Virus record (IMG/VR): IMGVR_UViG_2859827302_000003
Reading direction: 5' to 3' (one strand)
From: a virus
Taxonomy: Duplodnaviria; Heunggongvirae; Uroviricota; Caudoviricetes
DNA: 22,652 nt
Below are positions 4,994 to 7,856 of this stretch, piece after piece. The position numbers and the translations under genes were made by a program. The notes beneath the pieces are model-generated. The model was not told where the DNA came from. It was given only the letters and a program-made list of their open reading frames with translations, and made no database searches. Each line of letters starts with the position of its first letter. Within the stretch, counting starts at the first letter, position 1.

Positions 4994-5356
4994 TACCTGA
5001 CACATCGCTTCAATGGGAAATTGTTGTCGCCATTGTTCGATTAACGCGTATTTTTCAGCGACTCCTGTGCAAAATACGCTGTTGCTTTTTTTAATATATC
5101 TCGCTCAAGGCGAGCTTCATTTAACGCCTTACGCAGTTGCAGAATTTCAGATTCCAGTTCAGCCACCGTGCGGGAACCAGGAGTACCGAGCCCTTTTCTG
5201 GCGGCGGTAACCCATTGTCCTAAAGTGCCTTCAGGAAGGGATAATCGGGAAGCGCCTTCACTGATCGAAAGTTGATTTTCAAGAACCGTTCTGACAGCTT
5301 CGGCTTTGAACTCTTTAGAGTAACGTTGGTTTTTTCTGCTCATTATTAGCTCCTTC
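4994..5356 (-). mobile_element. IS600, partial second copy (element positions 52-414), cut at 4994 by IS911 and at 5356 by the IS66-family insertion
   Basis: Reverse complement matches copy 1 (1315-1677) base for base where compared. Confidence 0.75.
5041..5343 (-). CDS. IS600 OrfA (second copy)
   Basis: 100-aa translation identical to 1328..1630. Confidence 0.8.
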   Translation of the reverse strand: MSRKNQRYSKEFKAEAVRTVLENQLSISEGASRLSLPEGTLGQWVTAARKGLGTPGSRTVAELESEILQLRKALNEARLERDILKKATAYFAQESLKNTR

Positions 5357-5427
5357 GTAAGCGTACAGCCTGAACCGTCTGGTCAGAATCTGACGAATTA
5401 GACAAAGTGGTGTCCACCAAATAAGTA

Positions 5428-5829
5428 GTGGGAACCAAAGTGTCAGATATGCAGAAAAATGTGAATCCCGGCAGGCGAAAAGGCTGCCCTAATTATCCTC
5501 CCGAATTTAAACAGCAGCTCGTTGCTGCCTCCTGTGAACCCGGGATATCCATCTCAAAACTTGCTCTTGAAAATGGCATTAACGCCAATCTGTTGTTCAA
5601 ATGGCGACAACAATGGCGCGAGGGAAAGCTGCTATTACCTTCTTCAGAGAGCCCCCAGCTACTTCCTGTGACTCTCGATGCAGCTGCCGAACAGCCAGAA
5701 TCGCTCGCAGAGGATCCGGAAACCCTCAGTATCAGCTGTGAGGTAACGTTCCGGCACGGGACGCTCCGCTTCAATGGCAATGTCAGCGAAAAGCTCCTGA
5801 CTCTGCTGATACAGGAACTGAAGCGATGA
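5428..5829 (+). CDS. IS66-family TnpA (true start may be the internal Met at 5449)
   Basis: 133-aa ORF, first of the IS66 ORF triplet; overlaps the next ORF by 4 nt (ATGA). Confidence 0.75.
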   Translation: MGTKVSDMQKNVNPGRRKGCPNYPPEFKQQLVAASCEPGISISKLALENGINANLLFKWRQQWREGKLLLPSSESPQLLPVTLDAAAEQPESLAEDPETLSISCEVTFRHGTLRFNGNVSEKLLTLLIQELKR

Positions 5830-6173
5830 TCCCGTTACCTTCCGGGACCAAAATTTGGCTGGTTGCCGGTATCACCGATATGAGAAATGGCTTCAACGGC
5901 CTGGCGGCAAAGGTGCAGACGACGCTGAAAGACGCTCCGATGTCAGGTCACGTTTTTATCTTCCGTGGGCGTAATGGCAGTCAGGTAAAGCTCCTCTGGT
6001 CTACCGGCGATGGACTGTGTCTGCTGACCAAACGGCTGGAGCGCGGCCGCTTCGCCTGGCCGTCAGCCCGGGATGGCAAAGTGTTCCTCACACCGGCACA
6101 GCTGGCGATGCTCCTTGAAGGTATCGACTGGCGGCAGCCTAAAAGACTGCTTACGTCCCTGACTATGTTGTAA
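5826..6173 (+). CDS. IS66-family TnpB (IS66 Orf2)
   Basis: 115-aa ORF MIPLPSGTKIWLVAGITDMRNGFNGL..., the conserved IS66 Orf2 pattern. Confidence 0.8.
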   Translation: MIPLPSGTKIWLVAGITDMRNGFNGLAAKVQTTLKDAPMSGHVFIFRGRNGSQVKLLWSTGDGLCLLTKRLERGRFAWPSARDGKVFLTPAQLAMLLEGIDWRQPKRLLTSLTML

Positions 6174-6221
6174 GCCTCTTTATCCTGGTCGACGCTGAAT
6201 GAGCCTGGTAATATACCCGGT

Positions 6222-7760
6222 ATGAGCAGCTCACTTCCTGACGATATCAATGCACTGAAACGTCTCCTTGCCGAACAGGAGGCGCTGAACCGTGCCCTGC
6301 TGGAAAAGCTGAACGAGCGTGAACGCGAAATAGACCATCTGCAGGCACAGCTGGATAAGCTGCGCCGGATGAACTTCGGCAGCCGCTCCGAAAAAGTCTC
6401 CCGTCGTATCGCACAGATGGAAGCTGACCTGAAGGCACTTCAGAAAGAAAGTGATACCCTTACCGGTCGGGTTGACGACCCGGCCGTGCAGCGCCCGCTG
6501 CGTCAAACCCGCACCCGCAAACCGTTCCCCGAATCACTCCCCCGCGATGAAAAACGGCTGCTGCCGGCAGCGTCATGCTGCCCGGAATGTGGAGGCTCAC
6601 TGAGCTATCCGGGTGAGGATGCCGCCGAACAGCTGGAGTTGATGCGCAGCGTCTTCCGGGTTATCCGGACTGTACGTGAAAAGCATGCCTGTACTCAGTG
6701 CGATGCCATCGTGCAGGCCCCCGCGCCTTCACGGCCCATCGAGCGGGGTATCGCAGGACCGGGGCTGCTGGCCCGCGTGCTGATCTCAAAGTATGCAGAG
6801 CACACCCCGCTGTACCGCCAGTCTGAAATGTACGGCCGCCAGGGCGTGGAGCTGAGTCGTTCACTGCTGTCGGGCTGGGTGGATGCATGCTGCCGGCTAC
6901 TGTCACCGCTGGAAGAAGCGCTTCAGGATTATGTGCTGACTGACGGTAAGCTCCATGCTGATGACACGCCTGTCCCGGTGCTGTTGCCAGGCAATAAGAA
7001 AACGAAGACCGGGCGGTTATGGACCTACGTTCGTGACGACCGTAACGCCGGGTCAACGCTGGCGCCGGCGGTGTGGTTCGCTTACAGCCCGGACAGAAAA
7101 GGCATCCATCCGCAGACCCATCTTGCGGGGTTCAGTGGTGTACTGCAGGCGGATGCATACGCCGGGTTCAACGAGCTGTACCGGGATGGCCGGATAACGG
7201 AAGCCGCCTGTTGGGCTCACGCCCGCCGTAAAATCCACGATGTGCACGTTCGCACCCCGTCAGCCCTGACGGAGGAAGCGCTGAAACGGATCGGCGAACT
7301 GTACGCCATCGAGGCAGAGATAAGGGGAATGACGGCGGAGCAGCGCCTTGCCGAACGTCAGTTGAAAACGAAACCGCTGCTGAAATCCCTGGAAAGCTGG
7401 CTGCGTGAAAAGATGAAAACCCTGTCGCGACACTCAGAACTGGCGAAAGCGTTCGCATACGCCCTGAACCAGTGGCCGGCGCTGACGTACTATGCAGATG
7501 ATGGCTGGGCTGAGGCGGACAATAACATCGCTGAAAATGCGTTGCGGATGGTCAGTCTGGGCCGCAAAAACTACCTGTTCTTCGGTTCGGATCATGGAGG
7601 AGAGCGGGGAGCGCTGCTGTACAGCCTGATCGGGACGTGCAAACTGAACGGAGTGGAGCCAGAAAGCTACCTCCGCTATGTACTTGACGTCATAGCCGAC
7701 TGGCCGATAAACCGGGTCGGCGAACTGCTCCCCTGGCGCGTAGCACTGCCGACTGAATAA
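6222..7760 (+). CDS. IS66-family TnpC (transposase)
   Basis: 512-aa ORF with N-terminal coiled coil, CxxC...CxxC zinc-finger-like region and the large catalytic domain typical of IS66 TnpC. Confidence 0.85.
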
Positions 7761-7805
7761 CACATCCCCGTCAATACGGTTCTTGCTGCACGCTTACGCT
7801 CCTTC

Positions 7806-7856
7806 TGATGCCATTCTATTTCAGGAAGGAGTGTCTGTTAAACTCAGGCTACCTCA
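7806..7856 (-). mobile_element. IS600 second copy, terminal 51 bp (left inverted repeat), separated from the rest by the IS66-family insertion
   Basis: Reverse complement equals IS600 positions 1-51 with one mismatch. Confidence 0.75.

Follow-up and report, generated by a model that had tools for sequence, protein, structure and literature searches.

An ISEc22-like insertion with its target duplication and two rearranged copies in a decayed prophage region of Shigella dysenteriae

Insertion sequences of the IS66 family have a length of about 2.4-2.7 kb, carry the genes tnpA, tnpB and tnpC with an overlap of the first two, end in imperfect terminal inverted repeats of ~20-30 bp beginning 5'-GTAAGCG and generate an 8-bp target duplication. 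These features belong to the ISfinder description of the family and were reportedly described for IS679 by Han et al. in 2001, and its transposition is said to need the element's own three gene products. IS66 (Agrobacterium), IS679 and ISEc8 (E. coli) share the gene set, the overlap, the GTAAGCG ends and the 8-bp duplication with the element investigated here, but ISEc8-labelled elements on an O157 plasmid show only about 89% identity to it; their mechanism is not distinct. The same three-gene organisation is found in ISEc22 (PGAP label 'IS66-like element ISEc22 family transposase'), and our element is 99.7-100% identical to elements with the ISEc22 family label on plasmids of Shigella, E. coli and Salmonella and on E. 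coli chromosomes. The ISEc22 of ISfinder is tabulated at 2,454 bp (PMC5001619), compared with 2,441 bp here. We call the element ISEc22-like after the PGAP label of its near-identical relatives; it may be ISEc22 itself, an isoform, for which 95% or more nucleotide identity to the ISfinder reference would be required, or a relative with a name of its own. The expansion of insertion sequences in Shigella was documented by Hawkey et al. 2020 (PMC7373316), who followed IS1, IS2, IS4, IS600, IS911 and ISEc8 in S. dysenteriae of serotype 1. The IS-mediated rearrangement described there resembles that of the present region in its dense nesting (IS1, IS600, IS911 and others), strain-variable insertion sites and recombination between copies, whereas the ISEc22-like element and ISSso6 are not among the elements mapped.

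The window, i.e. the whole stretch of 22,652 nucleotides analysed here, matches the S. dysenteriae chromosome CP026828.1 with 17,493 bp aligned at 100% identity. It is a chromosomal stretch of this species from the region of a decayed prophage with gam, recE, tail-fibre genes and ipaH, into which insertion sequences have jumped repeatedly. Plasmid matches had first raised the suspicion that the virulence plasmid pINV was the source, which was rejected because the neighbours recE, a pphA-like phosphatase, RyeA/RyeB and yebY are chromosomal and because of the perfect match to CP026828.1. A scan with Rfam gave no hit to an RNA family within the IS region. Two insertion sequences precede the ISEc22-like copies:

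1264-2527, + strand: intact IS600, whose 1,264 bp show 99.7-99.8% identity to annotated IS600 elements; the uninterrupted control for the target site
3745-4992, + strand: IS911, 100% identical to annotated IS911 elements; it truncates the IS600 remnant discussed below

Our overall reading, which starts from the observed element anatomy, target duplication, empty sites and alternative orientations, is that the first of three ISEc22-like copies is a true recent insertion and that copies 2 and 3 are nested products of insertion, deletion and inversion within this IS-struck prophage region (probability about 0.9). The structure of copy 1 is as follows:

5357-7797, + strand: ISEc22-like IS66-family element copy 1, 2,441 bp, delimited from the sequence and the alignment of copies 1 and 2
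5357-5378, + strand: left terminal inverted repeat, GTAAGCGTACAGCCTGAACCGT
5428-5829, + strand: tnpA, 133 aa from a GTG start, HTH_Tnp_1 (Pfam PF01527, E = 1.8e-12)
5826-6173, + strand: tnpB, 115 aa, IS66 Orf2-like accessory protein (Pfam PF05717, E = 9e-38)
6222-7760, + strand: tnpC, 512 aa, IS66-family DDE transposase (PF13007, PF13005, PF03050, PF13817)
7776-7797, + strand: right terminal inverted repeat, ending in ...ACGGTTCTTGCTGCACGCTTAC

The terminal repeats are imperfect and begin GTAAGCGT...; comparison of the left end with the reverse complement of the right one (GTAAGCGTACAGCC... versus GTAAGCGTGCAGCA...) reveals 18 matches in the first 22 positions. The stop codon of tnpA and the start codon of tnpB overlap in ATGA (5826-5829), and public records list tnpA with 126 aa from an ATG at 5449. 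PF03050 covers positions 1-283 of 284 in TnpC (E = 7e-107), which scores 465 bits against the NCBIfam model transpos_IS66 (cut-off 180), and exactly the same protein is present in 68 blocks of the assembly collection. Copy 1 unites the TnpC domains, the overlapping tnpA/tnpB pair, the terminal repeats and the 8-bp duplication of the IS66 family, and an element on the S. dysenteriae plasmid NZ_CP045785.1 that is annotated as 'IS66-like element ISEc22 family' matches it at 100% identity. Judged by its structure, copy 1 is the only intact copy in the window and the only one that should be able to move.

The earlier note on this DNA described an intact IS66-family element inserted into IS600 with a clean 8-bp duplication. 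Insertion, host and duplication are all borne out, but the limits that it gave to the element (4994-7856) are those of the interrupted IS600 remnant, within which the intact element occupies 5357-7797. The insertion site is composed of four parts:

4993-5356, - strand: inner part of the IS600 remnant, IS600 positions 52-415 including orfA (5343-5041); 100% reverse-complement match to 1315-1678
5349-5356, no strand assigned: left 8-bp target duplication GCTCCTTC
7798-7805, no strand assigned: right 8-bp target duplication, a perfect repeat of 5349-5356
7798-7856, - strand: left end of the IS600 remnant, IS600 positions 1-59; reverse-complement match to 1264-1322

The two IS600 self-matches (1315-1678 with 5356-4993, 1264-1322 with 7856-7798) overlap by exactly 8 bp. 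Identity to IS600 holds on both sides of the insertion, and the sequence becomes contiguous after removal of the insert and one copy of the duplication, leaving a host stump of 415 bp (IS600 positions 1-415) that is cut by IS911 at 4992/4993. On the + strand of the window GCTCCTTC occurs only in the two copies flanking the element, and its reverse complement is found a single time, at 1315-1322 within the intact IS600. The same site is empty in two S. dysenteriae genomes: CP026840.1 (L005) contains the reconstructed empty site verbatim with a single GCTCCTTC, and in PSST01000003.1 (L010) the alignment runs through the site with no element in between, again with one GCTCCTTC. Perfect 8-bp duplications of unrelated sequence also flank six of ten further 2,441-bp copies. 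Copy 1 is a true and fairly recent product of transposition, its recent mobility being supported by the empty sites in two related genomes. At GCTCCTTC, the ribosome-binding region of the IS600 orfA, TnpC would have attached both ends of the element to a cut with an 8-bp stagger, and gap repair would then have produced the direct repeat on either side.

The claim of three sequence-identical copies fails for the other two, of which copy 2 is disrupted at its left end and copy 3 comprises only the first 1,621 bp. The relevant features are:

10650-10654, + strand: first 5 nt (GTAAG) of the copy 2 left end, split off by ISSso6
10655-12172, + strand: ISSso6, an IS110/IS1111-type element of 1,518 bp that interrupts the copy 2 left terminal repeat and is accompanied by a duplication of AG
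12173-14610, + strand: ISEc22 copy 2, element positions 4-2441; three intact ORFs, disrupted left end, without target duplication
14611-15162, - strand: 'ISx', a fragment of another, different IS66-family element (its left 552 bp) with tnpA at 15077-14658 (HTH_Tnp_1) and the end GTAAGCGTAAACTG
15163-16783, - strand: ISEc22 copy 3, limited to element positions 1-1621; intact tnpA and tnpB, tnpC cut at codon 252

Copies 1 and 2 point in one direction and copy 3 in the other, as the earlier note had stated, and all of them lie within 11.4 kb. The proposed identity of the encoded proteins applies to TnpA and TnpB of all three copies and to TnpC of copies 1 and 2, but the TnpC of copy 3 stops at residue 252 of 512, since this copy has lost 260 tnpC codons as well as its right end. 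Each pair of copies differs by one nucleotide over the shared length: the only internal difference between copies 1 and 2 is the synonymous exchange already noticed, now located at Val487 of TnpC (GTA/GTC), and copy 3 has a synonymous difference of its own at Lys29 (AAG/AAA).

A target duplication was sought around copy 2 and not found (unrelated flanks, GGATAACA on the left and GGTTATCC on the right), and the same applies to copy 3, which shows GAATAATC at its left end and lacks the right one. The flanks of copy 2 share 7 nt, namely GGATAAC before the left end and its complement after the right end; a preference of the GGATAAC type was not seen in the target duplications of the other copies. 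Since both lack target duplications, neither copy 2 nor copy 3 is a fresh insertion; they are products of nested insertions together with deletion and inversion. The proposal of recent transposition accordingly holds for copy 1 and not for these two damaged copies. The idea that copy 2 merely misses 3 bp at its left end was discarded when GTAAG was found on the far side of ISSso6. A composite insertion of the ISx fragment together with ISEc22 and an 8-bp duplication of its own was likewise rejected, since its two flanks differ (CCTGTCCC and GATTATTC). Shigella plasmids carry an IS66-family element whose left end matches the ISx fragment at 99.6-100% identity, and the insertion of ISx at element position 1621 would have truncated copy 3. 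Nested insertions followed by homologous deletion between two direct ISEc22 copies would be the most economical history, in which the order of events is a reconstruction; the partner junctions that it predicts, with the remainder of ISx and the right part of copy 3, are absent from the window.

The inverted arrangement of copies 2 and 3 encloses a short segment that occurs in two orientations:

13791-15162, no strand assigned: segment between 1,618-bp inverted repeats, which S. dysenteriae genomes carry in either orientation

In seven other S. dysenteriae chromosomes (L004, L005, L006, L008, L011, L024, L029) the alignment of block 12173-16780 runs in the opposite direction, and the junction of the ISEc22 left end with the tail-fibre flank has a relative orientation opposite to that of the ISx left end with ISEc22 position 1621. 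Such a reversal is what recombination of the inverted 1.6-kb repeats with each other should yield. A homologous exchange of this kind, presumably by the recombination machinery of the host, would have flipped the 1.37-kb segment and brought the element's intact right half, which lies on the tail-fibre side in the seven other genomes, over to the ISSso6 side seen in the window. Two further deletion variants of the region exist with precisely defined breakpoints, and four of the ten further copies have exchanged flanks, with ACTTAACT common to L015 and L018 and GATTTTGC common to L015 and L017. The suggestion that the copies are substrates for recombination is hence corroborated by the inversion, the flank swaps and the additional deletion variants, but a deletion between the direct copies 1 and 2 was not found among the retrieved genomes, whose RecE-based retrieval is blind to such an event.

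The two orientations might instead be assembly artefacts across the inverted repeats, and the orientation of the window is indeed present in only one retrieved assembly, CP026828.1. Both the repeats (1.6 kb) and the segment (1.4 kb) are, however, short relative to the read lengths presumed for complete chromosomes, and the other variants of the region are clean with exact breakpoints, which makes an artefact improbable. We regard as unlikely, if by a trace less so, a scenario in which the near-identity of the copies reflects homogenisation of old copies by gene conversion or recombination in place of recent transposition and the empty sites arose by loss, although gene conversion may account for part of this near-identity. 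The copies demonstrably recombine, as inversion isomers and flank swaps document, and variants at several positions within the copies differ between strains. Against this stand the exactness of the empty sites in L005 and L010 with their single GCTCCTTC, the 100% identity of copy 1 to a plasmid copy in another strain and the identical TnpC encoded by ten further copies; furthermore, precise excision of DDE-type insertion sequences is rare, which counts against a loss of copy 1 from the empty sites.

Very improbable is the initial picture of three intact, sequence-identical and equally active IS66 copies that all originated from recent and possibly ongoing transposition. Its appeal lies in the TnpA and TnpB proteins common to all three copies, the TnpC shared by copies 1 and 2 and the single nucleotide difference per pair, but the end of copy 3 at position 1621, the left end of copy 2 split by ISSso6 and the lack of a target duplication in either already refute it at the sequence level for both. 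One recent insertion (copy 1) accompanied by two rearranged copies is the reading that we retain.

A side observation concerns ISSso6, which is annotated as 'IS110-like element ISSso6 family' in the plasmid matches. It was encountered at four independent sites and always at the same position, GTAAG^AGCGT, in the left ends of IS66-family elements. Its transposase matches NCBIfam transpos_IS110 with 274 bits and the domains PF01548/PF02371, sub-terminal repeats (ATGACTTTCCGTG / CACGGAAAGTCAT) are present, and the stop codon is followed by 265 nt of non-coding sequence. A DEDD transposase, sub-terminal repeats, a downstream non-coding region and a fixed target and orientation, all of them found in ISSso6, are the characters of the IS1111 group. 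Described IS110/IS1111-type elements (PMC11187229) likewise have inverted repeats in sub-terminal position and a long non-coding stretch behind their gene, and they enter the terminal repeat of other mobile elements at a single position and in a single orientation; ISSso6 differs in its target, the left end of IS66-family elements, and its guide RNA is only putative. The sole hint of such a guide is ATATCAGCGT (12062-12071) in the non-coding region, with a 10-nt identity to the right junction; the single-sequence fold of the downstream region was no better than that of shuffles (z = -0.27), and Rfam gave no match there. We tentatively suggest, at slightly less than even odds, that ISSso6 may be an RNA-guided IS110/IS1111-type element programmed for GTAAG^AGCGT in the left terminal repeats of the IS66 family. 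If so, other insertion sequences would be its homing sites and would probably be inactivated by it. No statement on its target choice was found in the literature on ISSso6, ISEc22, IS1111 with IS66 and IS679, and the specificity may be so far undescribed. If confirmed and absent from ISfinder, it would add one more natural target for programmable IS110/IS1111 recombinases.

The biology of the ISEc22-like copies is all already known, and such copies and rearrangements are routine for Shigella. In the corrected local map a single ISEc22-like copy is mobile, another is disabled by ISSso6 and the third is truncated, and the small invertible segment and the deletion variants at this ipaH-linked prophage remnant could serve strain typing or genome assembly.

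The element that occurs three times in the window belongs to the IS66 family, whose textbook features are an 8-bp target duplication, a tnpA/tnpB/tnpC gene set and GTAAGCG ends, and it displays every defining feature tested. Its 2,441 bp start with GTAAGCGTACAGCC and end with the complement of GTAAGCGTGCAGCA (18 of the 22 first positions match). TnpA is an HTH protein of 133 aa (or 126 aa), TnpB an IS66 Orf2-like protein of 115 aa (its ATG and the tnpA stop share the sequence ATGA), and TnpC (512 aa) combines a leucine zipper, a zinc finger, DDE_Tnp_IS66 (1-283 of 284, E = 7e-107) and the IS66 C-terminal domain. 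The full-length identity amounts to 99.7-100% with elements annotated as "IS66-like element ISEc22 family" by the NCBI pipeline; the plasmids that carry them come from S. dysenteriae, S. boydii, E. coli and Salmonella, and others lie in E. coli chromosomes. Among 5,426 complete E. coli genomes, 4,060 carry related IS66-family sequence, for the most part with 80-90% identity. Two other genomes yielded ten additional copies of 2,441 bp with the identical TnpC, six of which are flanked by perfect 8-bp duplications of unrelated sequence. The ISfinder reference of ISEc22 is tabulated at 2,454 bp (PMC5001619), compared with 2,441 bp for the ISEc22-like form of the window.

Of the three copies in the window, copy 1 alone is intact at both ends and flanked by a duplication. 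The earlier note had assigned the element to 4994-7856 and correctly recognized an IS66-family element inside IS600, but this interval is the minus-strand IS600 remnant that holds the element and not the element itself. In the self-comparison of the window, 4993-5356 corresponded exactly to the reverse complement of 1315-1678, and 7798-7856 to that of 1264-1322. On the intact IS600 these two matches have exactly 8 bp in common (GAAGGAGC, 1315-1322), and the same 8 bp are found as GCTCCTTC at 5349-5356 and repeated at 7798-7805; the inserted element therefore corresponds to 5357-7797 (2,441 bp).

IS600 and IS911 in the window
1264-2527: intact IS600, 1,264 bp, 99.7-99.8% identity to annotated IS600 elements
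3745-4992: IS911, 100% identity to annotated IS911, cutting the IS600 remnant at 4992/4993

The remnant comprises only the first 415 bp of IS600, and the target of copy 1 is the ribosome-binding region directly upstream of the orfA start codon. This target is present without interruption in the intact IS600 of the window. The empty site, i.e., the sequence without the element and one GCTCCTTC, is found verbatim in the S. dysenteriae chromosome CP026840.1, and the alignment of the draft PSST01000003.1 runs through the site with the element missing. CP026832.1, CP026825.1 and the window's own record CP026828.1 have the filled junctions, and the alignment is colinear through copy 1 in six more chromosomes (comparison loci L023-L025 and L027-L029). 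Copy 1 is a real, recent insertion, and the clean 8-bp duplication proposed from the sequence is documented by GCTCCTTC on both sides and by the empty site in CP026840.1.

The structure of the other two copies contradicts the claim of three intact elements, because the left end of copy 2 is split by ISSso6, an IS110/IS1111-type element, and copy 3 stops at element position 1621.

Elements in the region of copies 2 and 3
10655-12172: ISSso6, 1,518 bp, directly left of copy 2, IS110-family transposase at 10732-11907
12173-14610: ISEc22 copy 2, element positions 4-2441, one difference from copy 1
14611-15162, minus strand: fragment of ISx, the first 552 bp of a different IS66-family element, right flank of copy 2
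15163-16783, minus strand: ISEc22 copy 3, element positions 1-1621 only

The first bases of ISEc22, GTAAG, are missing from copy 2 and lie beyond ISSso6 at 10650-10654; the left terminal repeat of this copy has therefore been split after nucleotide 5 with a duplication of AG. The left flank of copy 2 is GGATAACA, in prophage DNA, and shows no relation to the right flank, GGTTATCC. A GGATAAC motif (10642-10648) precedes its left end and the reverse complement GTTATCC (14612-14618) follows its right end. These 7 nt recur in inverted form although the two flanks, prophage DNA and ISx, are unrelated, a coincidence without any equivalent in the target duplications of other ISEc22 copies. The ISx fragment shares 99.6-100% identity with the left end of a Shigella-plasmid element with its own tnpA and tnpB, and the tnpC gene of copy 3 ends at codon 252 of 512, exactly where this left end abuts. 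Identical TnpA, TnpB and TnpC proteins had been reported for all three copies, which holds for TnpA and TnpB, whereas TnpC is the same in copies 1 and 2 only. The single synonymous difference noticed between the latter was confirmed (7682 A vs. 14495 C, GTA to GTC, Val487 of TnpC), and copy 3 likewise differs from copy 1 by one synonymous exchange (AAG to AAA, Lys29).

The truncated TnpC of 252 aa is a specific marker for the copy 3/ISx junction. An exact-sequence look-up located it in several complete chromosomes with companion plasmids that are filed under S. dysenteriae. One of these chromosomes, CP026828.1, matches the window at 100% identity across the retrieved 17,493 bp. The neighbourhood is chromosomal and comprises yebY, a phage integrase fragment, gam, a shortened recE, tail-fibre genes, an ipaH gene and a pphA-type phosphatase together with the sRNAs RyeA/RyeB and CssrB. 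The strong matches of the convergent sRNA pair SraC/RyeA and SdsR/RyeB (463-607), near the left edge of the window, confirm this context. The shortened recE-like exonuclease VIII gene (8191-10131, minus strand, 646 aa, with a match to positions 1-596 in a model of 877) is the mark of a decayed Rac-like prophage; in the assembly collection, 110 indexed blocks contain exactly this protein. The chromosomal ipaH gene (18743-20458, minus strand, 571 aa) encodes leucine-rich repeats and a NEL E3 ligase domain, contains a 60-nt periodicity at 19910-20149 and adjoins phage tail-fibre remnants, with CssrB at 20587-20769. Two identical, inverted IS1 copies (2959-3726 and 20846-21613), 17 kb apart, bracket the entire IS cluster. 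They are missing from most relatives compared, and the first exhibits a 9-bp duplication against CP026840.1.

The inverted repeats 12173-13790 and 15163-16780, 1,618 bp each, enclose 1,372 bp (13791-15162). In seven other chromosomes (CP026840.1, CP026832.1, CP026825.1, CP026807.1, CP026842.1, CP045784.1, CP176669.1) the block 12173-16780 is reversed between colinear flanks, so that inversion isomers exist among the sequenced strains. In these genomes the truncated copy adjoins ISSso6 and the full-length copy the tail-fibre gene, while the junctions between the ISx left end and ISEc22 position 1621 and between the ISEc22 right end and ISx position 552 are the same. This is the expected product of a homologous exchange in the 1,618-bp repeats that flips the enclosed segment. 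The 1.37 kb thus occur in both orientations among S. dysenteriae chromosomes, and the window (CP026828.1) represents the minority orientation. The earlier note had predicted two kinds of isomers: the inversion is found in the seven chromosomes, but a deletion of gam-recE by recombination between the direct copies 1 and 2 was not detected in any of the retrieved relatives.

The most likely order of events behind copies 2 and 3 would begin with an ISEc22 that entered prophage DNA, with ISSso6 later joining its left end and ISx its position 1621. Another ISEc22 would then have landed in ISx at position 552 and a third one in the tail-fibre gene. Recombination between these two direct copies would have deleted the prophage DNA between them, resulting in the common isomer and accounting for the lack of matching flanks at every copy there, and an inversion across the remaining inverted repeats would have led to the arrangement of the window. 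The partner junctions expected from this history are absent within the window.

Further rearrangements are present in the relatives. In CP026834.1 and CP034935.1, ISEc22 position 1620 is fused to the tail-fibre gene (window 13789 to 16792), and the ISx fragment, one full ISEc22 copy and a 7-8 bp flank are gone; the junction lacks any obvious repeat of more than 1 nt. In PSST01000003.1, an extra IS3-family element of about 1.3 kb lies between a shortened ISSso6 and the initial 230 bp of ISEc22. Of the ten additional ISEc22 copies, four have no duplications and share their flanks pairwise, which is a signature of recombination between copies. In UYIT01000003.1, ACTTAACT is located left of one extra copy and right of another (L015/L018), and GATTTTGC is likewise swapped between two copies (L015/L017), which indicates large rearrangements between the ISEc22 copies of this genome.

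Among the sequences collected, ISSso6 was found at four independent sites.

Insertion sites of ISSso6
Site 1: left end of ISEc22 copy 2, window and relatives
Site 2: left end of ISEc22 copy 1, CP026807.1
Site 3: left end of ISx, CP026807.1
Site 4: GTAAGCGTCAACGG, resembling an IS66-family terminal repeat, plasmid NZ_CP045785.1

Position and orientation are constant at all four, GTAAG[ISSso6]AGCGT with AG duplicated (10650-12177 in the window), and the empty counterparts of two are present in the window. Nearly all full-length ISSso6 matches in the plasmid collection reach exactly to the outer ends of GTAAG (left) and AGCGT (right). Judged from these junctions, the left terminal repeat of IS66-family elements appears to be the specific homing site of ISSso6; a statement of GTAAG^AGCGT as its target was not found in the literature searched. 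ISSso6 shares sub-terminal inverted repeats and a non-coding region after the gene (265 nt) with the IS1111 group, which is guided by seek/bridge RNAs and some members of which target terminal repeats of Tn21-family transposons (PMC11187229). Within this region, the 10-nt ATATCAGCGT (12062-12071) equals the junction of right end and target (12168-12177) and may represent the guide segment of a seek/bridge RNA. A single-sequence fold of the non-coding region gave no support for structure (z = -0.27).

Taken together, the earlier account was right in predicting rearrangement, and its number of intact copies needs correcting. Every element here is an already described IS, and the finding, although real, is an ordinary one. 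The expansion and nesting of ISs and the rearrangements mediated by them are well documented as hallmarks of Shigella and have gone furthest in S. dysenteriae (PMC7373316).
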